A stretch of DNA of 33,108 nt, taken from the NCBI GenBank assembly GCA_004376075.1, contig SOJQ01000016.1:1-33108 (forward strand). Direction: 5' to 3'. Positions within the stretch are counted from its first letter, which is position 1, and the number at the start of each line of letters is the position of its first letter. Shown here piece after piece: positions 2-30,359 of this stretch. Position numbers and translations under genes: made by a program. The notes under the pieces were generated by a model. It was given only the letters and a program-made list of their open reading frames with translations. It was not told where the DNA came from and made no database searches. Source of the DNA: Dehalococcoidia bacterium. GTDB lineage: Bacteria > Chloroflexota > Dehalococcoidia > E44-bin15.

Positions 2-400
2 GAAAGGCTCGGCAAAGCTGACATGAACGACCAACCCCCCCTCGAAGAAGCTGTTCACCCTGCTTTTGGTACGGTCGATGATTTGGTCTGGGATGACAAG
101 GTCCAGGGGGCAAATCTCTTCTTTCAAGCTCCCCACCGCACTAACAGAGATGATCCACTCCACACCTAAGGATTTCAGGGCATAGATATTGGCTCGGGAT
201 GGGAGTTCGGTGGGGCTGATGGGATGCCCCCTGCCGTGCCGGGGCAAAAAGGCGATCCTCATCCCTTCAAGATCGCCGATAATAATAGCGTCACTGGGCT
301 CGCCAAAGGGCGTCTTCACCCTAACCTCCTCGATATCGGTCATCCCCTCTATTTCGTAAAGGCCGCTGCCTCCAATGACCCCGATCTTTGCTTCAGGCAT
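2..400 (-). CDS. mtnP: S-methyl-5'-thioadenosine phosphorylase (3' part runs off the window)
   Basis: Not in the ORF track. Manual translation from ATG at 400 gives MPEAKIGVIGGSGLYEIEG...TPFGEPSD...FLPRHGRGH...ANIYALKSLGV...SAVGSL...PDQIIDRT, typical MTAP motifs. GGAGG RBS upstream. Confidence 0.95.
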   Translation of the reverse strand, partial: MPEAKIGVIGGSGLYEIEGMTDIEEVRVKTPFGEPSDAIIIGDLEGMRIAFLPRHGRGHPISPTELPSRANIYALKSLGVEWIISVSAVGSLKEEICPLDLVIPDQIIDRTKSRVNSFFEGGLVVHVSFAEPF

Positions 401-429
401 TGGTTCCTCCTCTAAGTGAAGAATTTAGA

Positions 430-1515
430 TCACCTTCTTGCCCTCACAGAAATTGCCTCTGTTGGGCATTGAAGGATGCAAGCCCTACAGGCTACGCATT
501 CGCTATCAGGTTTTACCATTATGGCGATATTTTGGGATTCATCCATATCGTAGATTCCTTTGGGACAAACATCATAACATAATTCGCAGCCTATGCATTC
601 ACTTTGATCCAAGGTTATTTTTTCCTCTTTAATTCTTGCCCTTCCCTTGAAACTTACCGAACCAATTCTATGAATCCCAATCCTGTCGAGCAGGGGGTCG
701 AGATCGCTCCTATATAAGGGGGAGACACCGCTGAAATCGATCCCAATTAACAAGACGAATACCATTGCCCCGAGAAATAGATTGCGTATATAGGTGGAAC
801 CTCCTCCGAAAGGGAATAAGTAAATCAAAAGTCCTATTATAGCAAGGGCCTCATAGAAGAGAACTTTAGCCCATCCCGATTTGCCAGGAATATAGGGATA
901 AAAGGCGTACATCAGGAGGAGGAGAGACGAGCCAAGGATAATGAATTCCACCAACCACCCTCTCCAAAAAATGGCGAGGATCACTGCGATGGGGAGGAAG
1001 AAGGCCAGGGAAACCCCAATGCCAGCGTCCAACCTGTCCATCAGGTTGAACTTAACCTTTCGCATATCGTCACTCTTTTGAAACCCCTTTCTCACGTATT
1101 CAGGTATCTCCTTGGCATAAACTGGGCCGAACCTGGAGTGCCATCCAGTTGCCTCTTTTATTAGCTCTGTATCTACTCCGGGGGCTGATAGCTGAGGCAG
1201 TATCAGTGTCCGATGGTTAACACTTTCGCCGATTCCTGAGGTTTTGATAACCGAAACTATGGAGTGAGCGTTGAACATGCCGCCCATCGCAGCACACCAA
1301 ACGTTTGTGCCATTAGTTGGCGCCACTAAAAGGTGGCAGTCCAGATCCCTAAGATACTTCGATACCCTTTTCACCGTGAGCTGGAAATTGGAGGTTACGA
1401 AAACGGGGCTATCTTCTCTGGGGTTGCCAAAAGCCCGTAGCCCCGGTTCGGTGGACAAAGGGAAGAGTCTGAACAAGGTTCCTATTGTGGTTTTGAAGCC
1501 TTCCTTGACATTCAT
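430..1515 (-). CDS. Fused HgcAB-like protein: corrinoid-binding domain, membrane helices and C-terminal 2x[4Fe-4S] ferredoxin
   Basis: HgcA/CdhD-like motifs PGL..GNP..SPVFVTSNF.LT, TNGTNVWCAAMGG (cap helix, Cys74), LILPQLSAPGV, FGPVYAKEIP, MRKVKF. Hydrophobic block at about aa 165-260. CIGCELCYDVCP and CVACRACILQCP at the C-terminus. Confidence 0.9.
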   Translation of the reverse strand: MNVKEGFKTTIGTLFRLFPLSTEPGLRAFGNPREDSPVFVTSNFQLTVKRVSKYLRDLDCHLLVAPTNGTNVWCAAMGGMFNAHSIVSVIKTSGIGESVNHRTLILPQLSAPGVDTELIKEATGWHSRFGPVYAKEIPEYVRKGFQKSDDMRKVKFNLMDRLDAGIGVSLAFFLPIAVILAIFWRGWLVEFIILGSSLLLLMYAFYPYIPGKSGWAKVLFYEALAIIGLLIYLFPFGGGSTYIRNLFLGAMVFVLLIGIDFSGVSPLYRSDLDPLLDRIGIHRIGSVSFKGRARIKEEKITLDQSECIGCELCYDVCPKGIYDMDESQNIAIMVKPDSECVACRACILQCPTEAISVRARR

Positions 1516-2177
1516 CTTTCAGCCTTTTTGGCGACAAAGAGCCCTAATGAACCGAGAAGGCTCCTCTTTGTAAAGATCATCCCAAATCCTGCATCAATGA
1601 TTGCCCTCTCAATTTCCCTTAGCTCCCTGGTGGTGGTCTGGGTGAAAACGTATGTTATGACTGCAAGGGGAATGCGCACAACCAAATATAAGCTTCTTTT
1701 CAACAATGAGTTGGGCTTTACTTCGTCGGCAATTATTAAAAGTCCACCGGGTTTCAGGACTCTGAAGGTCTGCCTAAGCACATATTTCTGTTCATCAGAA
1801 TATAGTTCACTGAAAACCAAGGTGCTCACAACCTTGTCAAATCTCTCATCCTCAAAAGCGCTGTCCATCTGGGTGGCGCCCATTTCCCTGAGCTCGATTT
1901 TTTCGCCCAGATGCCTTTCTTCGATCTTCCTCTGTGCTATGTTCAGCATTTGAGGAGAGATGTCGAAGCCAATAACGGAAGCGTCCCTCTCAGCGCACAA
2001 TATGGCCAGCGTTCCGGTGCCGCAGCCTACGTCGAGGACAGTATCTCCTGGGGAGATGTAATTTTCAGCGATCTCCTTTTTTAATCTGTTAATCCGCCCC
2101 AGGGAGAGCATGTTGATTCCGGCATCGTAGCGATGAGGAGCTGACTCCAGGATTTTCATAAATACATAGCTGCTCAC
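1512..2177 (-). CDS. Class I SAM-dependent methyltransferase (UbiE-like fold; resembles corrinoid-protein-associated methyltransferases)
   Basis: Motif [10 protein letters not shown], post-[25 protein letters not shown] overlaps with both neighbours. Confidence 0.9.
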
Positions 2178-3202
2178 CCCTGGAACACCTTCCTCAGCCT
2201 CTCCACATAGGGCTCGCGTATTATGCCCTTCTCGGTAATTATAGCAGATATGTAGCGATGGGGGGTGATGTCGAAGGCGGGATTGGCCACCCCAACCCCC
2301 ACCGGGGCGATGGGAACCCCACTAACATGGGTGACCTCCTCCGCCCCTCTCTCCTCGATGGGGATCTCATCCCCCGATGATAGAGAGAGGTCGATGCTGC
2401 TGGTAGGGGCGGCGACATAGAAGGGGACGCCATTTTCCCTGGCGAGGACCGCCAAATTATAGGTGCCGATCTTATTGGCGACATCGCCATTTGCCGCTAT
2501 CCTGTCGGCGCCCACAATGACGCAGTCGATCCTCCCCCTCGATAGGAAATGACCGGTCATGGTGTCGGCGATGAGGGTGAAGGGGATGCCATATTGCGCT
2601 AATTCCCAGGTGGTGAGTCTTGCCCCCTGAAGAAGGGGGCGGGTTTCGCTGACGAAGACGTGGACTGCCTTGCTCTGCTCCTTCGCCGCCCTGATCACCC
2701 CCAGCGCGGTGCCGTAGCCCGCCGTTGCCAGAGCACCGGTGTTGCAATGGGTCATTATAGTAAAGCCATCCCTTATCAACTCGGCACCATATGTGCTGAG
2801 CTTCCTATTTGCCGCCTCGTTCTCCTCCTCCAGCTTTTTTGCCTCAGCAAGGAGCGCCTCCTTTATCCGGGCCACATCCTCACCAGCCTCAGCCACCCGA
2901 TTCATCCTCTCCAGAGCTTTGAAGAGGTTGACTGCGGTGGGTCTGGTAGCGGACAGGGTTTCCGAAACGGGGCGAAGTTTGGCCGTGAACTCCTCTTTTG
3001 AGGCTGCCTCGATCCCTTGAGCCCCCAAAGCCATCCCGTAGGCAGCAGCGATGCCAATGGCTGGCGCCCCCCGGATTTGCATCTCCTTGATCGCCGATGC
3101 CACCTCTCGGTAGTCATCAAGTTCTAAGAAGACCATCTCCCAGGGCAGCCTGGTCTGATCGATAAGCCTGATTTTGCCCGAAACCCACTCGATGGCTTTC
3201 AT
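2174..3202 (-). CDS. mtnA: S-methyl-5-thioribose-1-phosphate isomerase
   Basis: [70 protein letters not shown]. Confidence 0.96.
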
Positions 3203-3215
3203 TTTTCAGCGCAAT

Positions 3216-3240
3216 AAAAAGCTTCTCACCTGCGAGAAGC
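3216..3240 (-). terminator. Intrinsic-terminator-like hairpin just upstream of mtnA
   Basis: Minus strand GCTTCTC-GCAGGT-GAGAAGC followed by TTTTT. Confidence 0.6.
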
Positions 3241-3268
3241 ACCTTCCACATCATATGGGGTATCAGCA

Positions 3269-3298
3269 ATCTTAACCCAGATTCGGACGGGTTGTCAA
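3269..3298 (-). promoter_or_regulatory. Sigma70-type promoter for the mtnA unit
   Basis: TTGACA (3298-3293), 18-nt spacer, TAAGAT (3274-3269). Confidence 0.6.
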
Positions 3299-3306
3299 GG
3301 CAGGTC

Positions 3307-5013
3307 TTAATGGAGCAGCTTAAAGGCCAACACATCTACCAGCCCCAGGTCGGTGAGTCTCAGCTCGGGGATCACGGGGAGGGCGAGGAAGGAGAGGGTG
3401 GCAAAGGGGGAGGATAGCTTGCATCCTAACTTTGAGGCGATGCCTTGGAGGTTTTCAAACCTATCCACCACCGCTTCCAGAGGTTCCTCAGATAGGAGGC
3501 CGGCGATGGGTAAGGCTAAAGCACCTACCACTTGCCCATCGGCAGCGACCACCAGTCCACCCTGAAGTTTTTCGACCTCCCCGATGGCAAGGTATATATC
3601 GCTATCCGTTGTGCCCACAGCGATAATGTTGTGGGAATCGTGGGCGATGGAGGAGGCCATCGCTCCTCTCTTTAGCCCAAAGCCTTTTACCAGCCCGAGG
3701 CCAATGTTTCCCGTGGCCTTATGCCTCTCCACTACCACCAGCTTTAGGATGTCCCTCTCCACATCGGGAACCACAAAGCCGTCGCCAATCTTCACCTTTT
3801 CCTCGCTCTTCCTGGTGATTATCTGGTCGGGGACGACCTCGATAACGGGATAAGCCTCCCTTCTTGCTGGCATCTTCAGCGCTTCTATATCGAAGGGCTT
3901 AACATTTACGGTGCGAGTCATCTCTTTATCCTCTACCACCAAGGGCGAAAAAAGAGGCTTGCCCTTCTCTGCTACCAGCTCTCCGCGGTAAAAAACCATC
4001 TCCACTTCAAAGGTGGAGAGATCGCTTAACACTAGGAGATTGGCAAGATAGCCCGGTGCTATGGCACCAAGGCCGTGGAGCCTGAAGTACTCGGCGGCAT
4101 TGATTGTGGCCATCTGGATAGCGCGAACAGGATCCAGTCCCAGCCTGATCGCCTTTCTCACCACAGCGTCGATATCGCCGTCCCTTAGCAGGTCGGCGCA
4201 GCTTCGGTCATCGACAACGAAAAGGCATCTCTTGTAGGTCTTATCGGTAACCAGGGGGAGCAGTGCCTCCAGATTCTTCTCCGAGGAGCCCTCCCGAATC
4301 ATCACATACATGCCCCGCCTCAATTTCTCTCTCGCCTCCTCCAGGGATGTCGATTCGTGGTCGGAGAGGATGCCACAGGCGAGGTAGGCATTGAGCTCCT
4401 TCCCCCTTAGCCCGGGGGCATGCCCATCGATCACCCTACCCCTTGAGGCGGCGAGCTTGGCCAGGACCTCCTTATCGGCGGCCAGCACGCCGGGGAAGTT
4501 CATCACCTCCCCCAGCCCGATGGTATTCTCCCAGGATAGGGCAGCTTCAACATCTTTCGCTGTCCATTTGGCTCCCGAGGTTTCCAGAGGGGTGGCGGGG
4601 ACGCAGGAGGGGACCATGAAATATAGGTCTAGGGGCAAAGGCTGGGCAGCGTTAATCATGTATTTTACGCCCGCCATTCCCCTGACATTGGCGATCTCAT
4701 GAAGGTCTGTTACTACAGCCGAGGTTCCACGGGGCACCACCGCCCTGGCATACTGGGAAACATGGAGCATCGAGCTTTCCAGGTGAATATGGCCGTTGAT
4801 CAGGCCGGGGGAGAGATATTTCCCCTTGAGGTCGATCACCCGCTGACCCTGCTCATAGTCACCAACCCCAGCGACCATCTCCCCATAGATGGCCACATTG
4901 CCCTGCTCTATGTCGCCAGTGAAGGTGTTCACTATCCTGGCATTGGCCAGAATCAGGTCCGCGGTGGCCTCACCCTTTGCTACTGAGATCAATCCTTTAA
5001 TGCCCATTTTCAA
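3307..5013 (-). CDS. ade: Adenine deaminase
   Basis: PGLINGHIHLESS, DLHEIANV, PSCVPAT, GEVMN, DGHAPGL, SDHE, IREGS, VVERH, SSIAHDSHN, LALPVIPELRLTD. Confidence 0.96.
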   Translation of the reverse strand: MKMGIKGLISVAKGEATADLILANARIVNTFTGDIEQGNVAIYGEMVAGVGDYEQGQRVIDLKGKYLSPGLINGHIHLESSMLHVSQYARAVVPRGTSAVVTDLHEIANVRGMAGVKYMINAAQPLPLDLYFMVPSCVPATPLETSGAKWTAKDVEAALSWENTIGLGEVMNFPGVLAADKEVLAKLAASRGRVIDGHAPGLRGKELNAYLACGILSDHESTSLEEAREKLRRGMYVMIREGSSEKNLEALLPLVTDKTYKRCLFVVDDRSCADLLRDGDIDAVVRKAIRLGLDPVRAIQMATINAAEYFRLHGLGAIAPGYLANLLVLSDLSTFEVEMVFYRGELVAEKGKPLFSPLVVEDKEMTRTVNVKPFDIEALKMPARREAYPVIEVVPDQIITRKSEEKVKIGDGFVVPDVERDILKLVVVERHKATGNIGLGLVKGFGLKRGAMASSIAHDSHNIIAVGTTDSDIYLAIGEVEKLQGGLVVAADGQVVGALALPIAGLLSEEPLEAVVDRFENLQGIASKLGCKLSSPFATLSFLALPVIPELRLTDLGLVDVLAFKLLH

Positions 5014-5537
5014 TCCTCTATGAAACGAAGATCAGGCAGGTGGCGAAACCTCTCATCATAGTCGAGGCCATAGCCCACCACAAACCTGTCGGGGATGGTG
5101 AAACCCAGGTAATCGATGGGAACATGAACCTTCCTTCGCGAGGGCTTATCAAAGAGGGCGCATAGCTTTAGGGAGGAGGGCTTCTTCTTCTTAAGATAAT
5201 CGATGAAATAGCCCACGGTGATTCCAGTATCCACGATGTCCTCGATAACCAGCACATCTCTCCCCTTTACCTTGGAGCGGAGCCCCTGCACCACCTTGAT
5301 CTCCCCCGAGGTTACCCTGGCGGAACCGTAGCTTGAGAGCGCCACGAAGTCTATCTCCACGGGGATCTCGAGAAGGCGAATAAGATCGGCCATGAAGACG
5401 AAGGAGCCCTTAAGGATGCCTAGGAGAAGGGGGTGCTTCCCTCGGTAATCCCTGTTGATCTCTTGGGCAAGCCTGGCCACCCCCCCTCTTATCTCCTCTT
5501 TAGTGAGCAGGACTTTCAGTTGCTCAGGAGCGGTCAA
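5010..5537 (-). CDS. hpt: Hypoxanthine phosphoribosyltransferase
   Basis: ILKGSFVFMADL, SSYG, PRPP motif VIEDIVDTG, FVVGYGLDY. TTG start. Confidence 0.96.
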   Translation of the reverse strand: MTAPEQLKVLLTKEEIRGGVARLAQEINRDYRGKHPLLLGILKGSFVFMADLIRLLEIPVEIDFVALSSYGSARVTSGEIKVVQGLRSKVKGRDVLVIEDIVDTGITVGYFIDYLKKKKPSSLKLCALFDKPSRRKVHVPIDYLGFTIPDRFVVGYGLDYDERFRHLPDLRFIED

Positions 5538-5859: not shown

Positions 5860-6645
5860 CTAGGTCCTCTTTGGAGTAATAACGATGTGGGGTGCCTTCA
5901 TTGAGGGATGCTGCATCACCTGCACTGAGGCGGAGAAGACCTCTTTTATGGTTCCCTCGGTGAGGACATCACTGGGGGGGCCATCGGCGAAGATACGCCC
6001 CTCCTTGAGGAGAATGAGTCTGTCGAAGTAAAGGGCGGCTAGATTCAGGTCATGCATCGCCCCGATAACGGTGATCCCTTGCTCCCGGTTGAGGCCTTTC
6101 ACCAGGTCGAGGATCTCCACCTGATGATTGATGTCCAGATGCGCTGTGGGCTCGTCGAGGAGGAGCAGCTTCGGCTCCTGGGCTAGCGCCATGGCCAGGA
6201 TTCCCTTCTGGCGCTCCCCTCCGCTGAGCTCGTTAAAGAAGCGCTGCCCCAGTTCTCTTATGCCGATAAGCTCCATGGAGTTCTGCACTGCTTTATAGTC
6301 CCCTTCCTCCTCGTTGGAGAAGGCTTTGAGGAAGGGGGTCCTTCCCAGTAGCACTACCTCCCTTAGCGTGAAGGCAAAGGGCATGTGGAACTGCTGGGGA
6401 ACCACGGCCACCCTTTGCGCCACCTCCCTTCGTTTTAGCCCTCTCAGGCTTGAGCCATCCAAATGGATCTCCCCCTCCGTGGGGCGGAGCACCCCGCTGA
6501 AAAGCTTAATCAGGGTGGTCTTACCCGAGCCGTTGGGTCCGAGGAGGGCCACCATCTCGCCCCTTTCTATTGCCAGATCGATGTCATGCAATACAGGAAC
6601 GTCAATATAGGAGAAGGAAACATGGCTAAGGCTAAGCTTGATCAT
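5860..6645 (-). CDS. btuD: Cobalamin ABC transporter ATP-binding subunit
   Basis: Walker A GPNGSGKT, signature LSGGERQ, LLLDEPTAHLD, HDLN. FecE/BtuD family in a B12 operon. Confidence 0.9.
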   Translation of the reverse strand: MIKLSLSHVSFSYIDVPVLHDIDLAIERGEMVALLGPNGSGKTTLIKLFSGVLRPTEGEIHLDGSSLRGLKRREVAQRVAVVPQQFHMPFAFTLREVVLLGRTPFLKAFSNEEEGDYKAVQNSMELIGIRELGQRFFNELSGGERQKGILAMALAQEPKLLLLDEPTAHLDINHQVEILDLVKGLNREQGITVIGAMHDLNLAALYFDRLILLKEGRIFADGPPSDVLTEGTIKEVFSASVQVMQHPSMKAPHIVITPKRT

Positions 6646-7703
6646 TAGAAGGCGTACTCCCTCCTTGTTCTCCTCAACAGATAGATAAAGAAGGGGGCAC
6701 CGATAAGGGCGGTAAGAATGCCCACCGGTATCTCCATAGGGGCAAGCATGGTGCGGGCGAGAAGGTCGGCGACGACCAGGAAAGCGCCGCCTGAGAGCGC
6801 CGCGGCGGGCAAGAGGAGGCGATGGTCCGGTCCCAGCACCAGGCGCACCGCATGGGGCACCACCAGCCCCACAAAGCCCACCAGCCCGCTAAGGGAGACG
6901 GCTCCGCCGGTGAGCAGAGAGCCCAAGCCAAGGATGGTAAGCTTGTCTCGCTCCACATCGACCCCCAGATATGCGGCACCCTCCTCTCCTAAGGAGAAGG
7001 CATTGAGGCGAAAGGCGAAGAAACGGGCCACTACGATCCCCCCAATAATCATGGGGGCGATGATTGCTATTTGGCTCCAGTCGCTTACCCAGATACCCCC
7101 CATAAGAAAGGACCATATCGAGTGCAGTCTAAGTTGCAGCCTGTCGCTCATTGTTATCAGGAAGCTCATCGCTGCTATTAGCATGGCGCTTACGGCAAAT
7201 CCGGCGAGGAGCATGCTTATGATAGGGGTCTTGCCCCCAACTCGAGCCAGGTTATAGACGAGGAGGACGGCAACCAGGGCACCGAAGAAGGCGGCAATAG
7301 GTACCAGCCCAAAGCCCAAAAAGGCGAAGCTCACCGGCAACATCATCGCCAATGTCGCCCCGAAGGCCCCCCCGGCGGAGGTGCCGATAATGTAGGGATC
7401 GGCCAGCGGATTTCTCAGTAGCCCCTGGAAGAGCACCCCTGCCGCTGCCAGTGCTGCCCCCACCAATGCCCCTGCCACCACCCGAGGCAGCCTGATCTGG
7501 AAGAGAATGGTCTCATCGGTTGCCTGCCAGGTTGCGGGAAAATGGGTGAAGGCTACCTTGTTTAGGGTCATCTTCACTATGTCTAGCGGGGAGATAGATA
7601 CAGCCCCGAAGGCGGCAGCGACGAGCAGGCACACGATGAGGATGCCTATGAGAGAGCCGAGGATGAGCACCGTGCGCTGATTGCTTTTTAACCTGGCAAG
7701 CAT
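6645..7703 (-). CDS. btuC: Cobalamin ABC transporter permease
   Basis: FecCD/BtuC motifs IRLPR, LRNPLADP, GEEGAAYLGV, GFVGLVVPH, EIPVG, GAPFF. Confidence 0.9.
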   Translation of the reverse strand: MLARLKSNQRTVLILGSLIGILIVCLLVAAAFGAVSISPLDIVKMTLNKVAFTHFPATWQATDETILFQIRLPRVVAGALVGAALAAAGVLFQGLLRNPLADPYIIGTSAGGAFGATLAMMLPVSFAFLGFGLVPIAAFFGALVAVLLVYNLARVGGKTPIISMLLAGFAVSAMLIAAMSFLITMSDRLQLRLHSIWSFLMGGIWVSDWSQIAIIAPMIIGGIVVARFFAFRLNAFSLGEEGAAYLGVDVERDKLTILGLGSLLTGGAVSLSGLVGFVGLVVPHAVRLVLGPDHRLLLPAAALSGGAFLVVADLLARTMLAPMEIPVGILTALIGAPFFIYLLRRTRREYAF

Positions 7704-7710
7704 AATAAGC

Positions 7711-9207
7711 CTAATCCCCTAAGCCACATATTTTATAGACCAGCTCCATGTCGAGGCTATGACGCACCAGCTCTGCCAGCTTCTCGTAATTTTCCTCTTT
7801 TGTGGGAAGAGGTGCTCTTGGCAATAGAGGGAGCCTTTTACCCTGGTGGAGTCGGGCGAGAAAGGCGTGTCGAAGATCGGCGTTATCGAAGAGACCGTGC
7901 AGATAGGTGCCCAGGATGTTTCCGCTTACAGCGCCATCAAGGTGGCTAATCTCTCTGTCCCCTCTCCGGGTGACCTCAAAGGCTGGCGCCATGTTACCTA
8001 TAGTCTGCCCCATGTGAATCTCGTATCCTGTTACCTCCAGCCCTTTCGTCCCCTGTAGTAAGCCCTTATCTCCGACAACCTTCGCTTTTATCTGGTAGGT
8101 GGCCTTTTCGGGTTCAAAGATAGTGACCACATTGAGCAGCCCCAATCCTCTAATGCTGCCCTTTTTGGATTCCACGCGGCGGGGATCCTCTATTCTCTTC
8201 CCCAGCATCTGGAATCCTCCACAGATGCCGATCACAGGTGTGCCAGCCTTAGCCCGCTGAATTATTGCCGAGGCTAGCCCCGTCTGCCAGAGAAGCGCCA
8301 GGTCGGCGATGGTGCTCTTGGTTCCGGGGAGGATGATGGCATCGGGTTCGCCAAGCTCATCGATGGCGGTTACGTAGCGCACATGCACCCCCTCCTCCTG
8401 CTGGAGGGGCTCAAAGTCGGTGGAGTTTGAGATGTGAGGCAGGTAGATAATGACGATCTCCACCTCTTTTCGTTCTGGCTCAATGTGGTAAATGGAGTCC
8501 TCCTCGGGAATGAGGATATGGTGGTAATAGGGGATGACGCCGACGACTGGCCTGGAGGTGATTTTCTCCAGCTGATCTAACCCGGGTTTGAGAAGAGCCA
8601 GGTCGCCACGAAACTTGTTAATGATAAAGCCTTTAATGTATTCCCTCTCCTCCTCATCGAGGAGGACCAGCGTTCCCACCAGGGAGGCGAAGACCCCGCC
8701 CTTGTCGATATCTCCTACAAGCAAAACCGGTGCCTGGGCCATTTTCGCCACCCTCATATTGACGATATCGCTCCCCTTAAGGTTTATTTCAGCGGGGCTT
8801 CCCGCCCCCTCGATAACCACAAGATCATAGGCGGAGCGAAGCTGTGCCAGCGATCCCTCAATTACCCCTAGAAGCTCAGGGGTATGGCGATAGTATTCGC
8901 CGGCAGCCAGAGTGAAGGCCGGCTTGCCCAGAACCACGATCTGGGCTCTGGCATCCTCCTCGGGCTTGATCAATATAGGATTCATTTCCACGCTGGGCTC
9001 GATCCCTGCCGCCTCCGCCTGAACCACCTGAGCCCGCCCCATCTCGCCCCCATCCCTGGTGACAAAGGAATTCAGGGACATGTTCTGCGACTTGAAGGGG
9101 GCTACCCTGAGCCCATCTTGGTGGAAGATGCGGCAGAGTGCGGCAACCACCACGCTCTTCCCCACTGAGGAGCCGGTGCCCTGGATCATCAAGGTCTTGG
9201 CGCTCAT
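7711..9207 (-). CDS. cobQ: Cobyric acid synthase (CobQ/CbiP)
   Basis: MIQGTGSSVGKS, PFKSQNMSLNS, EGAGSPAEINL, DIDKGG, INKFRGD, PGTKST, GICGGFQMLG, GYEIHMG, GTYLHGLF. Confidence 0.96.
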   Translation of the reverse strand: MSAKTLMIQGTGSSVGKSVVVAALCRIFHQDGLRVAPFKSQNMSLNSFVTRDGGEMGRAQVVQAEAAGIEPSVEMNPILIKPEEDARAQIVVLGKPAFTLAAGEYYRHTPELLGVIEGSLAQLRSAYDLVVIEGAGSPAEINLKGSDIVNMRVAKMAQAPVLLVGDIDKGGVFASLVGTLVLLDEEEREYIKGFIINKFRGDLALLKPGLDQLEKITSRPVVGVIPYYHHILIPEEDSIYHIEPERKEVEIVIIYLPHISNSTDFEPLQQEEGVHVRYVTAIDELGEPDAIILPGTKSTIADLALLWQTGLASAIIQRAKAGTPVIGICGGFQMLGKRIEDPRRVESKKGSIRGLGLLNVVTIFEPEKATYQIKAKVVGDKGLLQGTKGLEVTGYEIHMGQTIGNMAPAFEVTRRGDREISHLDGAVSGNILGTYLHGLFDNADLRHAFLARLHQGKRLPLLPRAPLPTKEENYEKLAELVRHSLDMELVYKICGLGD

Positions 9208-9761
9208 TTCTCGTCCTTCTTGCCTAGCGCCTTGAGTTCCATGGGAAGGCCTGCAATCATCATGTAGACCTTATCGGCGCGCTCGGCGATAAATTGATTG
9301 GCTTTGCCCAGGAGGTCGCGGTAAGCCCGCCCCGAGGGATATGGAGGAACCAGCCCCATGCCCACCTCGTTGGAGACGATAATGAGGCTGGCGTTTTTTC
9401 GCTCTAGGAGCTGGTTTAATTCATTGGCTATTTCGCTTTCTAAAGCGGCTAGGTCTTCGGGGTCATCGGCATTTTCCATAAAGTTCGAAATAAGGAGAGT
9501 GAGGCAATCTAGGATTACCACATCGGCATCCCCGATGTGCTCTCTTATCGCTTCGGCGACATGTTTGGGGGCTTCCAGGGTTCGCCAGGTGCTGGGGCGG
9601 GCCTTCTTATGAATCTCGATGCGGCGGCGCATCTCTTCATCCATAGCCACCAGAGGGGCAACGAAGAGCACCCTCTCGCTAAGGCTATCAGCTAGCCTCT
9701 GGGCAAAGCGACTTTTCCCGCTCCTGGCGCCGCCTAAAATGAGGATAATTTCCCTCTTCAC
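9204..9761 (-). CDS. cobU: Bifunctional adenosylcobinamide kinase / cobinamide-phosphate guanylyltransferase
   Basis: GGARSGKS, EMRRRIEIH, DCLTL, VSNEVGMG, AGLP. Start placed at GTG 9761 behind an AGGAGG RBS. Confidence 0.95.
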   Translation of the reverse strand: MKREIILILGGARSGKSRFAQRLADSLSERVLFVAPLVAMDEEMRRRIEIHKKARPSTWRTLEAPKHVAEAIREHIGDADVVILDCLTLLISNFMENADDPEDLAALESEIANELNQLLERKNASLIIVSNEVGMGLVPPYPSGRAYRDLLGKANQFIAERADKVYMMIAGLPMELKALGKKDEK

Positions 9762-9771
9762 TTCGACCCTC

Positions 9772-10515
9772 CTAGAGGTAGCCTCCATAGATAAGGGGAA
9801 CTAGAATTAGCACCAAAACCTCGATCACCTCATTGATCGCCCCATAGGTGTCACCAGTAAGTCCACCCAGTCTCCTTTTCAAAAAGATTGCCATTATTAT
9901 GGCGACAAGCCAAATTCCCGCCATCAGTGCCAAGCCCAATAGCTTCATTAGAAGCACTGATATTGCCAGGGCAATCAATGTCGCTATGGTCATACTCTGC
10001 CAGTTCGCCTGCTCCTTGAAGATTTGCCCTATGCCTTCCCTTCTGGCGGAGGGATAGGCGAAGACGGCATAGACTATCGCCCAACGACTGAGAGTGGGCA
10101 TGAGGAGAAGGGCAGCCATCCTAAAGGCAGCTGGCACAAAGATTAAGGAGATGCTCTTGACCAGGAGCAGGGAGCACGCCCCTACCACCCCAAAACCTCC
10201 CGCTCTGCTATCATGCATAATCTCCAATCTCTGCTGCGGCGACCTACCGGCAGCCATGCCATCGCAGGTATCGATAAAGCCATCGAGGTGATTGGCCCCG
10301 GTGAGAAGGATCAAAGCTACGATGATTAATACGCTCCCCAAGGCCATGGGCAAGAACAGAGCGAAAAGGCGGTCTAAACCGTATAACGCCCCTCCTAACC
10401 CCAGCCCGATAAGGGGGAAATAGACCAGGGATCTGCCGATCTCCATTGGGGTGGCCTCCCGCCGCAGGGGGGAGGGGATTACGGTCAGAAACTCAAGTGC
10501 TGCCAGAAAACCCAT
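9772..10515 (-). CDS. cobS: Adenosylcobinamide-GDP ribazoletransferase (cobalamin synthase)
   Basis: FLTVIP, LTGANHLDGFIDTCDG, IMHDSRAGGFG, LGGLTGDTYGA. Membrane protein. Confidence 0.95.
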   Translation of the reverse strand: MGFLAALEFLTVIPSPLRREATPMEIGRSLVYFPLIGLGLGGALYGLDRLFALFLPMALGSVLIIVALILLTGANHLDGFIDTCDGMAAGRSPQQRLEIMHDSRAGGFGVVGACSLLLVKSISLIFVPAAFRMAALLLMPTLSRWAIVYAVFAYPSARREGIGQIFKEQANWQSMTIATLIALAISVLLMKLLGLALMAGIWLVAIIMAIFLKRRLGGLTGDTYGAINEVIEVLVLILVPLIYGGYL

Positions 10516-10587
10516 TGTTTTCGCCTTTTTCGCCCTATTTGTGGCTTTCTCTCGGGTCGCTGTGGGTCATTGCTCCTCGGCTGATAG

Positions 10588-11658
10588 TTATTTCAGTTTA
10601 TTATTGGCCTCGGCGACCCCGGCCTCGGCGAAGGTAGCCATCTCTGCCAGGGTCCTCAGGGCTGCCTCAATAATAAAGATCGCTAGCGCAGCCCCTGTCC
10701 CCTCGCCCAGCCTCATCTCTAGGTCGAGCAGAGGTTCGAGTCCTAGGTGTTTAAGGGCGACCCGGTGTCCCCTTTCCGCTGAGATGTGCCCCGCGATGAG
10801 GAAGTCGCCCAGCTTTGGTGCCATTCTGGTGGCGATGAGCGCCGCCGCCCCGGAGATGAAGCCATCGATGACGATGGGGATGCGATGCCTCGCTGCCCCG
10901 ATCATCACCCCCACCAGCCCCCCGATCTCAAAGCCGCCCACCTTTGCCAGCACATCGAGGGGATCGGCGGCATCGGGCTGGTTGACCCTGAGCGCCCTTT
11001 CTATGACCTTCACCTTATGTCTTAGCTGTCTATCGCCTATCCCGGTGCCCCGTCCGGCGACCTTTGCCACCGACTCCCCGGTGATGGCAGCGGTGATGGC
11101 ACTTGAGGCGGTGGTATTTCCGACGCCCATGTCGCCGCTGCCCACAATGTCCAGCCCTTTTTCGAGCTCCCCTTCCAAAATCTCAATACCCGCCTCTATG
11201 GCCTGAAGCGCCTCCTCCCGGGTCATCGCAGGCCCCCGAGCCATATTGCGTGTCCCGTAGGCAACCTTTCTGGAGACCAGGCTTGAATGGGGCTCAAGGT
11301 CAGTTCTCACCCCCATGTCAACAACCACCACCCGAGCGCCCACCTGTCGCGCCAGAACATTGATGCCAGCGCCACCATGAAGGAAATTTTGAACCATCTG
11401 GGCGGTGACCTCTTGAGGGAACAGGCTTACCCCTTCAGCCACTACGCCATGATCGGCAGCCATGGTCACGATGGCTTTATGCTCAAGCCTGGGTATTGCC
11501 TGGCCCCTGATCCCGGCCACCTTAATGGAAAGCTCCTCCAGCCTTCCCAAGCTCCCCTGGGGCTTGGTCAGATTGCTCTGTCGCTGTCGGGCGGCGCTCA
11601 TTGCCGCCTCATCCAAGGGCTTGATCTCCTGAATCGTCTCTAGGTACATTGCTACCAT
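10588..11658 (-). CDS. cobT: Nicotinate-nucleotide--dimethylbenzimidazole phosphoribosyltransferase
   Basis: LTKPQGSLGRLE, AADHGV, GDMGVGNTT, GRGTG, GGFEIGG, DGFIS, MRLGEGTGA (catalytic Glu), MATF. Confidence 0.96.
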   Translation of the reverse strand: MVAMYLETIQEIKPLDEAAMSAARQRQSNLTKPQGSLGRLEELSIKVAGIRGQAIPRLEHKAIVTMAADHGVVAEGVSLFPQEVTAQMVQNFLHGGAGINVLARQVGARVVVVDMGVRTDLEPHSSLVSRKVAYGTRNMARGPAMTREEALQAIEAGIEILEGELEKGLDIVGSGDMGVGNTTASSAITAAITGESVAKVAGRGTGIGDRQLRHKVKVIERALRVNQPDAADPLDVLAKVGGFEIGGLVGVMIGAARHRIPIVIDGFISGAAALIATRMAPKLGDFLIAGHISAERGHRVALKHLGLEPLLDLEMRLGEGTGAALAIFIIEAALRTLAEMATFAEAGVAEANNKLK

Positions 11659-11664
11659 CCTTCT

Positions 11665-12765
11665 TTATTTTTCATAGCCAAGAGGGGTTATCTCCTTAAT
11701 GGCGGTGATCAGCTTTCGACAATCGGGCAGCGGGCGCGGCGCAATACGGATATACTCCGGTAAGCCGAAAGAGGTGCAATCTCGCACCAAAATTCCTCGC
11801 TCAAGCAAAGCACGACGAAACCTTTTGGCGTCCCCTACCTCGACCAAAAAGAAATTAGCCTGGGAGGGCAATGGCTGCAAACCAAGCTCAGCGAGTTCCT
11901 TTATTAGAAAGTCTTTCAGGTGCTGGATACCGACTTTGCACTTCCTCATATATTTCTTGTCAGCTAGAGCAAGGATTCCTGCTCTCTGAGCCACGACATT
12001 GACATTCCAAGGGGGGCAAACCTTACGTAGGTTGGCGATGATCTGCTGCTGGGCAATGGCATAGCCCAAACGCAGCCCAGCTAGGGCATGGCTCTTGGCC
12101 AGGGAGCGCAGGACGAGCACATTGCCCCGCTGAATAATGTCCAGCGACGACCAAGCATTATCGACAAAGGCGATATAAGCCTCATCCAGGATGAGGAGGC
12201 TATCCTCACAAGCTACTAGGATCTGCTCTATTTCCTCCCTCGCCAAATATTGTCCGGTAGGATTATTGGGGTTGCATAGAAAGATCCCTTTTGGGCAGTG
12301 GCGTCGGATTAAGTTCACCGTCTCCGTTACCTGTAGCCTGAAGCTTTGTTGCGCCGTTAAGCGTTGTTTAAGCACCCCAGAGCCGACCAGTTGGCAGGCG
12401 ACCTCGTACTCGCCGAAGGTGGGCTCGACGATCAGCACCAGGTCTTGAGGCCCAAAATAGGCCTGGGCGACAAGTCGAATAAGCTCTACCGAGCCGCTGC
12501 CAACCAGGATGTCTTCCGGTGCTATGCTCAGTTCCTGCGCCAGGCACTCCCTTAATTCCGTAGCCTCAGAATCAGGGTAAAGGGCGATGGGTAACGAGGT
12601 CAAAGCCTCCCTTACCCCAGGTGGCGCACCGAAGGGATTGGTGCTGACGCTGAAGTCAACGACGTCCCCGGCGGCGAGGCCAAATTTCTTCAGCTCAGCG
12701 TAATCTGGACCGCCGTGGGGGCAAGGGGATAGATTTTCAACTTCTGACCTAGGAGACAAAGGCAA
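11665..12765 (-). CDS. cobD: L-threonine-O-3-phosphate decarboxylase (PLP; Salmonella-type CobD)
   Basis: HGG, DFSVSTNP, CNPNNPTG, DEAY, RSLAK (PLP lysine), ILVRDCTSF. TTG start at 12765 behind GAGGTGG. B12 operon context separates it from HisC. Confidence 0.85.
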   Translation of the reverse strand: MPLSPRSEVENLSPCPHGGPDYAELKKFGLAAGDVVDFSVSTNPFGAPPGVREALTSLPIALYPDSEATELRECLAQELSIAPEDILVGSGSVELIRLVAQAYFGPQDLVLIVEPTFGEYEVACQLVGSGVLKQRLTAQQSFRLQVTETVNLIRRHCPKGIFLCNPNNPTGQYLAREEIEQILVACEDSLLILDEAYIAFVDNAWSSLDIIQRGNVLVLRSLAKSHALAGLRLGYAIAQQQIIANLRKVCPPWNVNVVAQRAGILALADKKYMRKCKVGIQHLKDFLIKELAELGLQPLPSQANFFLVEVGDAKRFRRALLERGILVRDCTSFGLPEYIRIAPRPLPDCRKLITAIKEITPLGYEK

Positions 12766-13680
12766 GATACACCACCTCGACAAGGAAGCAGAGCAGACCC
12801 CAGAGGAGTGCTGTGATCCCCATTATTCTTAATGAAGCGTCGATAGTTTCTGGGAGCAGGAGGCTATTGGCATCACCGAGTATATAATGCCCCTTTTTCT
12901 CCAGCTGCACATCTAGCGCTCCAGCAGCTGCGCTCATCGTCCACCCGGCATTGGGACTCTCAGTCTTGGCATGGTCACGAAGGATGACCCGGAAAGTGGC
13001 TAAGAAGCGCTTTCCCAATAGAAAAGCAGCTACCGCCATCATCAGGCTGGTAAGCCGCGCTGGGAGGAAGTTTAAAGCATCGTCCAGTCTGGCCGCAAAT
13101 TTGCCCAAGTGCTCATATTTCCCATGATAGCCAATCATAGCATCAAAGGTGTTGACCACTCTATAGGCGATAGCTCCCGGTAGGCCAAAGAGTATGAAAT
13201 AGAATAAAGGGGAAACAAAGCTATCACAGGTATTCTCAGCCACCGATTCCACAGTAGCCGAGACCAGCAATGGCTTATCGAGCCCGCTGGTATCACGGCT
13301 CACCAAGGAGCGCATGGCAGCGCGTGCCCGAGGGAAATTATCGGCTATCAGCAACCCCTTGACCTCATGGGCAACCCTCCTCAGCTCCCTAATCGAGAAA
13401 GTTGATTTGAGCACTAAAGCACCCACTATGATATAGGCTGCTTGGCTCAGCTCCCTGAGATAAGCTAGGAGAAAATAAATGGGTATAGCAAAAAAACCAA
13501 TGGCAAGCAAAACCGCCCCAGCGCCGTAAATTAGCTGAGCAATCGAGCCCCTGCCACGGGTGAGCCTTTCGATAAGGGATGTAAACTTACCCATCCAGAC
13601 TACGGGATGCAAAATAGAGGGTGGCTCGCCAAAGACAAGATCGATGGCAATGGCAAGGATTAGAAAAGTACATGCTCCAT
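12749..13680 (-). CDS. cbiB: Adenosylcobinamide-phosphate synthase, apparently frameshifted near codon 6
   Basis: HPVVWMG, LVSRDT, ESVAEN, YRVVNTFDAMIGY, ARLDD, SPNAGW. The conserved N-terminus (LAIAIDLVFGEP) lies upstream of the listed TTG but is out of frame with ATG 13680. Confidence 0.9.
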
Positions 13681-13690
13681 GCCACCGCTT

Positions 13691-14425
13691 TCAACCAAAG
13701 TCCTCTTTCTGATGCTTAAGGATAGCCTCCTTTGTAGCTGCCGTCACCGCCTTGGCCAGCAACTCTCCCATCTTAGCGTGCCCACCCATATAGTGGATTT
13801 TGGCACCTACCCCTGATACAATCATTACATTATCAGTCCCTGTCCCTGTGGCTTGATATTGCGGGCTATAAGAGCTTCTTACATCCAGATCCTGGAGTGC
13901 TACTATCTTTGCCTCAGTAGCAGTAATTATCGATCGAACCATAGCTCCTTCAGATAGGGAAGCATTGGTCAAAGCTATGATATTTATAGTTCCCAGCGCC
14001 TCAAATTTGCCATCCCTTTCTAAGTGGTGCCCCTCATCCACGCCTATTCTTAGAGCATTAGACATAACCCCAGCGGTGACGACGGCACAAATCCTGAACT
14101 CGGCAAAGCGCTCCTCTCTGACGGCGAAATCATCAATATCTACGCCTGTAGAGAGGAAGGCGACCTCCTGCGGAGAAAGCCCCAGATCGGCAAGCACGCT
14201 ATCTAAGTAGAGCTGCCAATCTCGATGCAGGAGATTCCAGAGCTGAGGGGGATTGGAATTATTACATACCACCCTCGCCTGCTTAAATCCCTCCCTGGAA
14301 CTTAGGACCAGTCTTGGTTGAGAGAAGATTATGAGCAGGGTCTTTATCGGGACGCCTTGATATTGGTGGTAAACCACCTCAGCTTTTGCCTCTTCAAACT
14401 GCCAAGAGATCTCTTTCCTTGTCAT
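13691..14425 (-). CDS. cbiZ: Adenosylcobinamide amidohydrolase
   Basis: TAGVMSNA, GTINII, TATEAK, ATGTGTD, GGH motifs. Confidence 0.9.
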   Translation of the reverse strand: MTRKEISWQFEEAKAEVVYHQYQGVPIKTLLIIFSQPRLVLSSREGFKQARVVCNNSNPPQLWNLLHRDWQLYLDSVLADLGLSPQEVAFLSTGVDIDDFAVREERFAEFRICAVVTAGVMSNALRIGVDEGHHLERDGKFEALGTINIIALTNASLSEGAMVRSIITATEAKIVALQDLDVRSSYSPQYQATGTGTDNVMIVSGVGAKIHYMGGHAKMGELLAKAVTAATKEAILKHQKEDFG

Positions 14426-14478
14426 CAGATCGCTCCATCTGGGTAAAGTAGCAAGCGGGATCCCACTTCTTCAAACAT

Positions 14479-15390
14479 TCAACCCCCCTCCTGGAATAGT
14501 TCGAGATGGATCATCCTCGCCATCTCCTCCAGAGCATCGACGATGCGAGGGCCTCCCCGGCTGGTCAGGTCACCATCGATAGGGTAGATTCTTCCTGTCC
14601 TGATGGCTGTAGTTTGGCTCCAGCCAGAGAGTTCCTCGAAGTCTGGGACATCCACCGTACCATGGCAGTCGTCGAAGATGATGATCTCTGGGTCAGCGTT
14701 GACCAATGCCTCGAGGCTGAATTGTGTCCATTGGCCTGCTGTTGCTGCTATATTCTCACCCCCGGCTAAGCCGATCAAGGCATCAATAAAAGAGCCTTCC
14801 CCGGCCGTCCAAGGCTTGGTAGGGTCGGAGGCATCAATCACATAAAACACCCTTGGTTTTGGGGCATCCCCGGTCTCGGCAACAATGGAGTCGATGCGTT
14901 GCGTCATATCGCTCACCAGTTGTGCCGCTCCCTCCTCTGTGCCCGTGATCTGCCCCATCAACTCAATATTGGCAAAAATACCGTCGATGTCCTTGGCGTT
15001 GAAGACAACCACCGCCAATCCTTTGCTCTCAAGCTGGGATACCAGGTCGGGGTAGTGAATGTTGGCAGCCAAGATAAGGTCAGGCTCCAGATCGATAATC
15101 CTTTCCAGGCTGGGCGTGGAAAAACCACCAACCTTGTCCTTAGCCAGCGCCTCGTCGGGATAGTCGCAGTAGTCGGTCACCCCCACCACCCTATCCCCCA
15201 GATCGAGGGCAAACAGAACCTCGGTGATGCCAGGCCCTAGGGAAACAATACGTTGAGGAATCTCCTCTATATTGACGGTCCTTCCCATATCATCGGTTAT
15301 TGCGCCTGGCCCAGGAGTTGGAGGGGTACAAGCTATCACTAAAGCAAGCACTAAGGTCGAAAAAAGCAAAATCAAAGCAAGCCTTTTCAT
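14479..15390 (-). CDS. btuF: Cobalamin-binding lipoprotein of the ABC transporter
   Basis: Start at ATG 15390 with AAAGGAG RBS. Lipobox VIAC. TDDMGR, RIVSLGP, TEVLFAL, VGVTDYCDYP, RGGPRI. Confidence 0.9.
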   Translation of the reverse strand: MKRLALILLFSTLVLALVIACTPPTPGPGAITDDMGRTVNIEEIPQRIVSLGPGITEVLFALDLGDRVVGVTDYCDYPDEALAKDKVGGFSTPSLERIIDLEPDLILAANIHYPDLVSQLESKGLAVVVFNAKDIDGIFANIELMGQITGTEEGAAQLVSDMTQRIDSIVAETGDAPKPRVFYVIDASDPTKPWTAGEGSFIDALIGLAGGENIAATAGQWTQFSLEALVNADPEIIIFDDCHGTVDVPDFEELSGWSQTTAIRTGRIYPIDGDLTSRGGPRIVDALEEMARMIHLELFQEGG

Positions 15391-15415
15391 TGGAGCTCCT
15401 TTCAAAAGAGTAAAC

Positions 15416-15448
15416 AAAAAAATCCCCTCGCTCTGCAGAACGGGGGAT
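15416..15448 (-). terminator. Riboswitch expression-platform terminator
   Basis: ATCCCC-CG-TTCTGCAGAG-CG-A-GGGGAT followed by a T run, between the aptamer and the btuF RBS. Confidence 0.85.
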
Positions 15449-15467: not shown

Positions 15468-15620
15468 ACCCCCTTTCTCCGCGGAGGTTTCAGGGAAACC
15501 AGAGGCTGGTGTTCTGACTTCGCCGAATTATTCGGAGTCACAGTAGGCGGGACTGTGCCGGATTCTCACCGGTCTTGCCTTCCATTTAAGCCCTCGCTCG
15601 CGCTCGGGCACCTCTGGGTT
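15468..15620 (-). promoter_or_regulatory. Cobalamin riboswitch
   Basis: Minus strand: closing stem CCAGAGG/CCTCTGG, GGTGCCC...GGGCTTAA, CCGGTGAGAATCCGG T-loop hairpin, ACAGTCCCGCCTACTGT, B12-box-like AAGTCAGAACACCAGCC. A downstream hairpin with GCGGA loop could kiss the CCCGC loop. Directly upstream of btuF. Confidence 0.92.
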
Positions 15621-15638
15621 CACTATTAAGTTTTGCTT

Positions 15639-28703: not shown

Positions 28704-29240
28704 TCAGTAGTCGATCCCCCTCCTCGCCCTTATCCCCTTCTGAAAGGGGTGCTTAATCTCCACCATATCGGTAACAAGATCAGCCCTTTCGATAAGCCTC
28801 TCATCGGCATGGCGACCGGTGAGGATAAGCTCCACCTTTTCTGGCTTCTCCTCGATGAGCCTCAATACCTCTTCAACCCCCACCAGCTTCCAGGCAACAG
28901 CGATGTTTATTTCATCGAGCACCACGAGGTCGTAGTCGCCGCTAGCGATCGCCTTCCTAGCTGCCTCCAGAGCCTGCCTCGCCTGCTCCCTTTCGTTCTT
29001 TTTAACCCTCTTTGGGTCTACAAAGTCCCTGTGGCCAAAGCTTTCGAAGCTAACATTGGGTAGCTGGGCAAGGATCTTTCGCTCCCCATAGGGATAATCG
29101 CCCTTCATGAAGTAAACGATATGAGCACGCAGGCCCTGTCCCAGGGCACGAAGCACCACCCCTAAGGCAGCGGAGGTTTTGCCTTTGCCACCTCCGGTGA
29201 AGATCTCCACCAGCCCTTTGGTCGGCGGTTCATTGTTCAT
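28704..29240 (-). CDS. cobO: Cob(I)yrinic acid a,c-diamide adenosyltransferase (CobO/BtuR/CobA)
   Basis: [40 protein letters not shown]. Start placed at ATG 29240 because the listed upstream TTG overlaps the promoter. Confidence 0.93.
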
Positions 29241-29246
29241 CACAGC

Positions 29247-29295
29247 ATAAGAAGCCCGTCCGCCTAAACCCTTCCAAGCTTGGGTGGCGGCGGGC
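29247..29295 (-). terminator. Terminator-like hairpin in the cobO leader
   Basis: GCCCG-CCGCC-ACCC...GGGT-TTA-GGCGG-A-CGGGC followed by TTCTTAT. Confidence 0.45.
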
Positions 29296-29314
29296 ATTTG
29301 AGATTCACATTCAA

Positions 29315-29343
29315 AGTCTAACAAGAGGGCACCTCCTTGTCAA
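29315..29343 (-). promoter_or_regulatory. Sigma70-type promoter of the cobO-mutase unit
   Basis: TTGACA, 17-nt spacer, TAGACT with extended TG. Confidence 0.7.
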
Positions 29344-30337: not shown

Positions 30338-30359
30338 GCCCAATAAAGGGGAAAGGAAG

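Follow-up and report, generated by a model that had tools for sequence, protein, structure and literature searches.

The CpaM and HgcAB-like gene pair between mtnA and mtnP

The window analysed here is the entire contig C75 (SOJQ01000016.1, 33,108 nucleotides) of the Dehalococcoidia bacterium genome G000 (GCA_004376075.1), which comprises 1.26 Mb in 133 contigs and is 93% complete. At one end of the window, the minus strand carries in succession hpt, an adenine deaminase gene, mtnA, cpaM, a gene for an HgcAB-like fusion protein and mtnP. The subject of this work is the pair formed by cpaM and the HgcAB-like gene, whose products are assigned to a class I S-adenosylmethionine (SAM) methyltransferase and a fused corrinoid and iron-sulfur membrane protein, together with the setting in which this pair is found. 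Its closest protein relatives carry the label Dehalococcoidia, and the public sequencing runs that contain the stretch are labelled mostly marine sediment.

The HgcAB-like fusion protein (430..1515, minus strand; 361 amino acids) reaches 397.4 bits with the NCBIfam model NF043039 (cut-off 285), covering model positions 2-350 of 350. Its sequence predicts a single chain in which a CFeSP-like corrinoid domain with a cap-helix cysteine is followed by a membrane domain and a 2x[4Fe-4S] ferredoxin. The corrinoid-binding, CFeSP/CdhD-like domain spans residues 19-145 (1081..1461, minus strand; Pfam CdhD at residues 19-140, E = 1.6e-19) and contains the motif NVWCAAMGG with the cap-helix Cys74 (codon 1294..1296, minus strand), in which N71, V72, W73 and C74 are invariant in 25 of 25 rows in each of alignments A1 and A3. 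Foldseek matched this domain to CFeSP (2ycl_A, 34% identity, root-mean-square deviation 2.7 Å over 127 columns) and to the HgcAB model 9a0b_A (E = 1.5e-9); it is the fold similarity to CFeSP from which corrinoid binding by the protein is predicted. The membrane domain, residues 158-258 (742..1044, minus strand), forms four long helices in the AlphaFold2 model (158-183, 185-204, 214-236 and 241-258; mean predicted local distance difference test (pLDDT) of the model, 70.8), and hydropathy segments lie between residues 161 and 268. The C-terminal 2x[4Fe-4S] ferredoxin domain, residues 300-357 (445..618, minus strand), was recognised by Fer4 families, and its cluster cysteines C307, C310, C313, C317, C340, C343, C346 and C350 are all eight invariant in two 25-row alignments. 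The chain ends 11 residues past the last cluster cysteine with ...CPTEAISVRARR.

CpaM, the corrinoid protein-associated methyltransferase (1512..2177, minus strand; 221 amino acids), scores 303.1 bits with NF043040 (cut-off 180). Its GTG start agrees with the family N-terminus M-x-S-Y-V-x-M-K-I-L-E (alignment A2), motif I is present as VLDVGCGTG with G51, G53 and G55 invariant in the same alignment, and a hydrophobic segment covers residues 162-181. The closest named families are UbiE/MenG (82 bits) and ArsM-type methyltransferases (76 bits), both under their cut-offs, and the comparison with solved structures gave generic class I methyltransferase matches only (about 20-160), with no close structure among them. 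Across the ArsM-type models CpaM reaches 61-76 bits against cut-offs of 263-510 and thus falls outside that family; in alignment A2, no cysteine outside motif I is conserved, none being invariant or nearly so, and an ArsM-like function was rejected because ArsM, unlike CpaM, has conserved cysteines.

In genome G000, the cut-offs of NF043040 and NF043039 are each exceeded once. The window proteins share with this NCBIfam pair ('fused HgcAB') scores above the cut-offs along the whole length of both models, the CpaM-first gene order and the invariant residues, and differ by their genomic setting alone, so that by sequence they represent a further member of a catalogued, functionally unassigned family pair. 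A preliminary description of this DNA, made from the sequence, had recognised a SAM methyltransferase next to a fused HgcA/HgcB-like corrinoid/Fe-S membrane protein, an assignment with which the NCBIfam cut-offs, the domains and the fold match agree; it had also stated, rightly, that the pair might be catalogued (NF043040 'CpaM', NF043039 'HgcAB-like fusion protein'). NF043040 is typed 'hypoth_equivalog', and a curator had evidently noticed the pairing, since the family name 'corrinoid protein-associated' says so. Our literature search, which did not extend to supplements, returned nothing on CpaM or on a partner methyltransferase of fused HgcAB, and we do not claim the partnership as unpublished.

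The genes around the pair, hpt (hypoxanthine phosphoribosyltransferase, 5010..5537; TIGR01203, 207.9 bits), adenine deaminase (3307..5013; TIGR01178, 638.6 bits), mtnA (S-methyl-5-thioribose-1-phosphate isomerase, 2174..3202, 342 amino acids; TIGR00512, 456.9 bits, cut-off 279) and mtnP (S-methyl-5'-thioadenosine (MTA) phosphorylase, 2..400), all on the minus strand, make up a conserved adenine/MTA salvage block; many relatives also have adenine deaminase upstream of mtnA. Being truncated at the contig end, mtnP is represented by its first 133 amino acids (NF005657 and TIGR01694, model positions 1-133); the full-length ortholog in the same-genus locus L012 has 289 amino acids and 321.7 bits with TIGR01694 (cut-off 274.85). 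The genes are tightly packed. The mtnA/cpaM junction is a 4-nt overlap at 2174-2177, which reads GTGA and not ATGA because the cpaM start codon is GTG; the cpaM/HgcAB-like junction is a 4-nt ATGA overlap at 1512-1515, and direct reading of the sequence gives a 29-nt spacer with a GGAGGA ribosome-binding site before mtnP (401..429, minus strand), a gap that is identical according to the gene coordinates of L012. The preliminary description was accurate on the order of the four genes on one strand, on the 29-nt gap and on the overlap at 1512-1515; its second ATGA overlap, at 2174-2177, had to be corrected.

That this arrangement is not an assembly artefact follows from its presence in G001, a genome of the same genus (protein identity 88-96%), and from contigs of independent public runs that bridge both junctions (X6 record 12, 329-2259; X2 record 6, 693-3205). 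All four genes are under purifying selection between G000 and G001, with dN/dS values of 0.11-0.22 (0.17 for cpaM and 0.22 for the HgcAB-like gene).

In the gap between adenine deaminase and mtnA, a consensus scan found promoter-like hexamers (TTGACA-18-TAAGAT, 10/12) at 3298..3269 on the minus strand, where a promoter had been predicted before; since the count of such sites in 6 kb is not above that in shuffles (3 found vs 3.9 ± 2.1 expected), the site carries no evidential weight, and it is followed by a terminator-like hairpin with a T run (3240..3221, minus strand) ahead of mtnA. The hairpin, 67 nt past the adenine deaminase stop and 19 nt ahead of the mtnA start, could by its position terminate an hpt-ade transcript or attenuate entry into mtnA; terminator-like sites are likewise no commoner in the consensus scan than in shuffles. 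A search for a riboswitch or leader gave no Rfam match in positions 3150-3350 at E ≤ 1.

Occurrence of the pair and variability of the mtnA-mtnP gap

About 2,000 homologues exist, and the neighbourhoods of 160 loci were surveyed, 80 from genomes (one genome per species) and another 80 from metagenomes. The genome loci span Dehalococcoidia, Anaerolineae, Bathyarchaeota, Hadarchaeota, Heimdallarchaeota, Thermodesulfobacteriota, Myxococcota, Acidobacteriota and others. In 73 of the 80, the CpaM sequence immediately precedes the HgcAB-like one (64 as a separate gene, 9 in one uninterrupted open reading frame (ORF)); in two further loci it lies one gene or about 1.8 kb away. The five loci without it comprise four true HgcA and one unexplained case (L032); counted over the fused-type loci only, CpaM is directly upstream in 73/76. 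Single-ORF CpaM-HgcA(B) proteins occur at L027, L031, L065, L068, L076, L077, L085, L088 and L093, and three of these nine were checked against NCBIfam: two 591-aa ORFs (L027:152-1927 and L031:2049-3824) pass both cut-offs, with about 270 and 371 bits, and are triple fusions, and a 540-aa Anaerolineales ORF joins CpaM to the HgcA-like part, with a small ferredoxin gene standing separately downstream, as is the case at the Anaerolineales-type loci. Among the metagenome loci, CpaM is adjacent in 52, seven have no upstream room, two show a weak match elsewhere and 19 show none; 17 of the latter are unfused HgcA-type ORFs without an Fe-S motif and two are of the fused type. The CpaM partner therefore separates the fused clade from true HgcA at every judgeable locus, with three exceptions. 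In the neighbourhoods of the 80 genome loci, no other methyl-donor enzyme recurs.

Apart from CpaM, one neighbour of the pair recurs. It is a cluster of TetR-family regulators, seen in ten of the 80 genome loci (L021, L031, L037, L044, L055, L056, L065 and three more), directly flanking the pair in at least seven, and four of these regulators are Pfam-confirmed. In a few loci, ABC-2 exporter and DsbA/DsbD-like genes lie near the pair.

The salvage setting does not recur. Neither mtnA nor mtnP was found near the pair at any of the 80 genome loci (E ≤ 1e-6) or at any of the 80 metagenome loci. Upstream sequence of 1.3 kb or more is available at 71 of the genome loci, downstream sequence of 0.4 kb or more at 75, and both at 66; 36 of the metagenome loci have room on both sides. 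Closer to the window, the HgcAB-like model passes its cut-off in four of 41 related genomes, G000 included. Neither of the two carriers of the same family, G002 and G022, has the pair beside mtnA or mtnP: its neighbours there are CFI-box/internalin-like proteins, an O-methyltransferase and unknown ORFs, and mtnA and mtnP sit on other contigs. The same-genus genome G001 alone shares the arrangement. Recurrent co-location that would mark the pair as a functional member of MTA/methionine salvage was thus not observed in independent lineages. The link to MTA salvage drawn in the preliminary description is not supported: the lack of mtn genes beside the pair elsewhere, which that description had named as a refutation, holds outside the genus. 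The accompanying suggestion that MtnP and MtnA clear SAM by-products fails as well, because class I methyltransferases release S-adenosylhomocysteine (SAH), not MTA, and the SAH hydrolase AhcY is encoded elsewhere, on contig C14 (582.7 bits, cut-off 497.6).

The gap between mtnA and mtnP is itself variable. The 41 related genomes were searched with mtnA, and 28 loci from genomes outside the genus were considered; mtnP follows mtnA on the same strand in 26 of these. In 17 relatives the two genes are 12-173 nt apart, and in nine (L097, L099, L102-L105, L116, L120 and L123) the distance is 519-1319 nt. The cargo of the long gaps includes an SRPBCC protein, an IS200-like Y1 transposase, a DsbA-like protein, an ATP-binding cassette (ABC) ATPase-like ORF and four kinds of protein without a Pfam match, one of them common to two genomes of one genus; in seven of the nine, the cargo has a GC content of 0.37-0.45. 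The pair in the window also stands out in composition, with a GC content of 0.47 (0.473 for cpaM, 0.472 for the HgcAB-like gene) and 0.52-0.55 at third codon positions (GC3; 0.522 for the HgcAB-like gene), against 0.54-0.59 and 0.67-0.72, respectively, in the eight flanking genes (GC 0.582 in mtnA). Contigs in two public runs pass straight from about 394-401 to about 2189-2231, which is the pattern that relatives with nothing in the slot should give.

Phylogeny places the pair apart from those of its own family. In a tree of 40 rows selected from the available sequences, three true HgcA serving as a distant group, the copies of the window and of G001 group together (support 100/100). A separate clade, with support of 100/99, contains the copies of G002 and G022 along with others from Dehalococcoidia and Bathyarchaeota, and the window/G001 group is not part of it; the same-family copies are, by this placement, not each other's closest relatives. 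The data are most simply understood if the mtnA-mtnP gap in this Dehalococcoidia-like family tolerates the arrival of foreign genes, and we read the pair as inserted cargo that rides on the salvage operon in this genus specifically. Separately, in three relatives' loci (L107, L108 and L116; genomes G006, G020 and G038) a single in-frame TAG was noted in the open frame around the mtnA match, either within the gene or in upstream read-through.

A proposed methyl relay and its alternatives

The window protein resembles the mercury-methylating HgcA and HgcB in its CFeSP-like corrinoid domain with a cap-helix cysteine, its membrane domain and its 2x[4Fe-4S] ferredoxin, and SAM is likely the ultimate methyl source in both cases. 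It differs in that these parts lie in a single chain with four long membrane helices, in a cap motif that ends in MGG where true HgcA has GKG, and in its SAM methyltransferase partner, none of which was found beside four confirmed and 17 presumed true HgcA. With NF040863, the model for true HgcA, it scores 162.2 bits and remains below the cut-off of 275; true HgcA from four genome loci reaches 405-469 bits, and the two HgcB tested reach 118-124 bits (cut-off 99). The cap helix reads NVWCAAMGG, compared with NVWCAAGKG in the true HgcA of L071, L082 and L091, and since the cap motifs accepted for true HgcA in PMC10087281 are N(V/I)WC(A/S)(A/G/S)GK, the window protein with its NVWCAAMG lies outside that set. 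A GVGCA cysteine and a Cys-rich C-terminal tail are found in all four true HgcB (the tail ends in CC in L091 and L071). The window protein has neither, and its cysteines do not place it among HgcB; C73, C94 and C95 of HgcB are reported as crucial for mercury methylation in PMC11588087.

Both points on which the preliminary description relied for these proteins have a basis in print. That SAM serves as methyl donor of HgcAB is reported in PMC11588087, which describes methylation of true HgcAB by SAM via methyl-Co(III) with Co-S (thiolate) ligation and no separate methyltransferase. That fused forms lack demonstrated mercury methylation is likewise borne out: two carriers of fused genes, P. furiosus and Methanococcoides methylutens, produced no methylmercury above controls (PMC4646819 and PMC5893877). 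PF0729 has been named among the copper-induced 'ferredoxins' of P. furiosus. By accession arithmetic alone we take PF0729 to be presumably the fused HgcAB of this organism, which makes it no more than a lead.

Two further corrinoid systems offer partial precedents. With CFeSP and its methyltransferase (AcsC/AcsD and MeTr/AcsE of the Wood-Ljungdahl pathway), the pair shares the corrinoid-binding fold (2ycl_A), the logic of methyltransferase, Co(I) and acceptor, and an Fe-S cluster for reactivation; it differs in its putative donor enzyme, a Rossmann-fold SAM methyltransferase where theirs is a TIM-barrel methyl-folate enzyme, and in a membrane-anchored corrinoid protein with cysteine as the predicted lower ligand. 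A CFeSP gamma-like gene (82 bits) is found apart from the pair in genome G000, on contig C63. In the reactivation module of MetH, SAM and a low-potential electron donor turn inactive cobalamin into methyl-Co(III), as we propose here, but the MetH module does not belong to the class I Rossmann methyltransferases and is confined to repair, whereas SAM is proposed as the routine donor for the CpaM/HgcAB-like module.

We consider it likely that CpaM and the HgcAB-like protein constitute a widespread mobile module that was inserted into the mtnA-mtnP gap as a passenger without metabolic tie to the salvage genes, and that passes methyl groups from SAM via CpaM and Co(I) to an acceptor other than mercury. 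According to this hypothetical scenario, the horizontally mobile two-gene module at 430-2177 would have entered between mtnA and mtnP in this genus and would be carried along in the expression of the adenine/MTA salvage operon by means of the 4-nt start/stop overlaps. The C-terminal 2x[4Fe-4S] domain would reduce the cobamide held by the CFeSP-like domain to Co(I); CpaM would bind SAM, methylate Co(I) and release SAH; Cys74 would be the lower ligand of the resulting methyl-Co(III); and an electrophilic or lipophilic acceptor, located at the membrane domain with its four helices, would take over the methyl group as the equivalent of a carbanion or radical. We propose this relay because SAM methylates true HgcAB, because CpaM is nearly always co-encoded and sometimes fused at the N-terminus, and because no other methyl donor recurs; a relay from SAM to a Co(I)-corrinoid had already been put forward in the preliminary description, and the natural single-ORF CpaM-HgcA(B) fusions lend it plausibility. 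Hg(II) is probably not the acceptor, since the thiol tail of HgcB is lost. As acceptor we would guess at a soft metal(loid) or an electrophile dissolved in the membrane. The patchy, mobile distribution and the occasional TetR and exporter neighbours suggest, again as a guess, that the module has an accessory function or serves in detoxification.

Structure prediction of the two proteins together with SAM gave a score of 0.43, where the best of three controls had 0.00, with no interface reported; between runs, 55% or more of the contacts are the same, and the pLDDT of the partner is at least 77. Of 80 solved complexes, 58 attained this mark, as did two of 110 mismatched pairs; among those that did so with a score of 0.60 or under were only 7 of the 80, but both of the mismatches. 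The co-folding gives the proposal weak support.

Several points weigh against this proposal. No direct or inverted repeats or scars bracket positions 430-2177, where short scattered matches only were seen, and the GTGA/ATGA overlaps and the purifying selection would equally fit real integration into the operon. The metagenome loci are often short (median flanks of about 1.4 and 1.2 kb), and the absence of mtn genes at other loci is compatible with a lineage-specific use. That CpaM methylates cobalt rather than a substrate is suggested by adjacency and fusion; by analogy with true HgcAB, the HgcA-like domain might use SAM without CpaM, in which case CpaM would have a different role; and at L172 and L189 (metagenome loci of the fused type) and the genome locus L032, no CpaM was detected at E ≤ 1e-6. 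If the module were instead wired to MTA salvage, by clearing by-products or by recycling the methylthio group through the corrinoid protein, one would understand the tight packing of the four genes with their 4-nt overlaps and 29-nt gap, as well as the fact that another genome of the genus has preserved this order, with the genes subject to purifying selection. A search for a class II aldolase (MtnB/Ald2 type, PF00596) found none in the 93%-complete genome, which leaves the step after MtnA in MTA or 5'-deoxyadenosine salvage, that is the fate of methylthioribulose-1-phosphate, unaccounted for and counts in favour of this view. We nevertheless hold this wiring to be very improbable, given that mtn genes accompany the pair at 0/160 other loci, that in G002 and G022 the pair and the mtn block are found in different places, that unrelated cargo fills the slot in nine of 26 relatives, that the GC content of the pair is foreign, and that a class I methyltransferase yields SAH, for which AhcY is encoded elsewhere, and not MTA.

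A different objection concerns the donor side, namely that CpaM is not the routine loader: the corrinoid domain would use SAM directly or another donor, and CpaM would either serve only to re-methylate oxidised Co(II) reductively, in the manner of the MetH reactivation module, or methylate the substrate or product at a second position. The SAM-dependent methylation of true HgcAB without a separate methyltransferase (PMC11588087) speaks for it, as do the closest named families of CpaM, which are small-molecule methyltransferases, and the hydrophobic segment at residues 162-181, which could face a lipid substrate. Yet CpaM accompanies 73 (plus two nearby) of the 76 fused-type genome loci and none of the four confirmed and 17 presumed true HgcA, a distribution that points to a job which the fused clade cannot do alone; at nine loci it forms the N-terminal part of a fusion with the corrinoid domain, the neighbourhoods contain no other recurrent methyl-donor enzyme, and CpaM, unlike ArsM, has no conserved cysteine outside motif I. 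On balance we regard a CpaM that is not the loader as unlikely. That the pair is a functional mercury-methylating HgcAB seems next to negligible in probability: the fold, the cap-helix cysteine and the 162 bits obtained with the HgcA model are what it has in common with HgcA, and they are set against a score below the cut-off of 275, a cap helix outside the accepted ...GK motifs (PMC10087281), the lack of counterparts of the crucial HgcB cysteines (PMC11588087) and the two organisms with fused genes that formed no methylmercury above controls (PMC4646819 and PMC5893877).

Extending the relay from SAM through CpaM beyond this window, we tentatively suggest that CpaM and the HgcAB-like protein represent a distinct and very widespread class of membrane methyl relay, in which a Rossmann-fold SAM-dependent loader may charge a Cys-ligated cobamide. 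From there the methyl group would pass, as a carbanion or radical, to an electrophile other than mercury, for example a metal(loid) or a compound soluble in the membrane. On this view, which as a whole we hold with less than even confidence, the loader would have been lost in the branch of true HgcAB.

Corrinoid salvage genes of the window and implications

Upstream of the salvage block on the contig lies a ten-gene operon at 5860-15417 (btuF, cbiZ-like, cbiB, cobD, cobT, cobS, cobU, cobQ, btuC and btuD), which by its gene content is an operon for corrinoid uptake, salvage and nucleotide-loop assembly. No corrin-ring synthesis genes were found within the window, and the 'full cobamide supply operon' of the preliminary description is accordingly to be read as one of the salvage type. 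It is headed by a cobalamin riboswitch just upstream of btuF (15487..15630, minus strand; RF00174, 48.8 bits, gathering score 31.5). We rejected the idea that this riboswitch controls the pair, because the element is situated in front of btuF, some 12 kb upstream of the pair, and because hpt is preceded by a promoter-like site of its own. Further along the window are genes for the large subunit of methylmalonyl-CoA mutase (27023-28687, minus strand), a CobA-type adenosyltransferase (28704-29324, minus strand) and a PduO-type adenosyltransferase (30312-30881, plus strand). A small class I methyltransferase beside hisA (31613-32242, plus strand) was also noted, with weak matches to ArsM-type models (66.6 bits, cut-off 263) and to the CpaM model (39.5 bits).

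In summary, the window itself is ordinary, and the seemingly new salvage context of the pair is most likely a genus-specific insertion into a variable slot. For this window, our analysis removes the tempting link between corrinoid methyl transfer and methionine salvage and instead brings out the mtnA-mtnP gap as a landing site for foreign genes in the family. What 'fused HgcAB' does has been an open question since 2015, and surveys of mercury methylation routinely leave such genes out of account. Usable points that emerge here are that CpaM marks the fused clade, that it is fused in frame in nine sampled lineages and that the cysteines of HgcB tied to mercury are missing. Combined with the discovery in 2024 that true HgcAB receives its methyl group from SAM, they turn the old question into one that can be tested biochemically in concrete and cheap ways; if the proposed methyl relay is true, the natural 591-aa triple fusions would allow this test in a single polypeptide.

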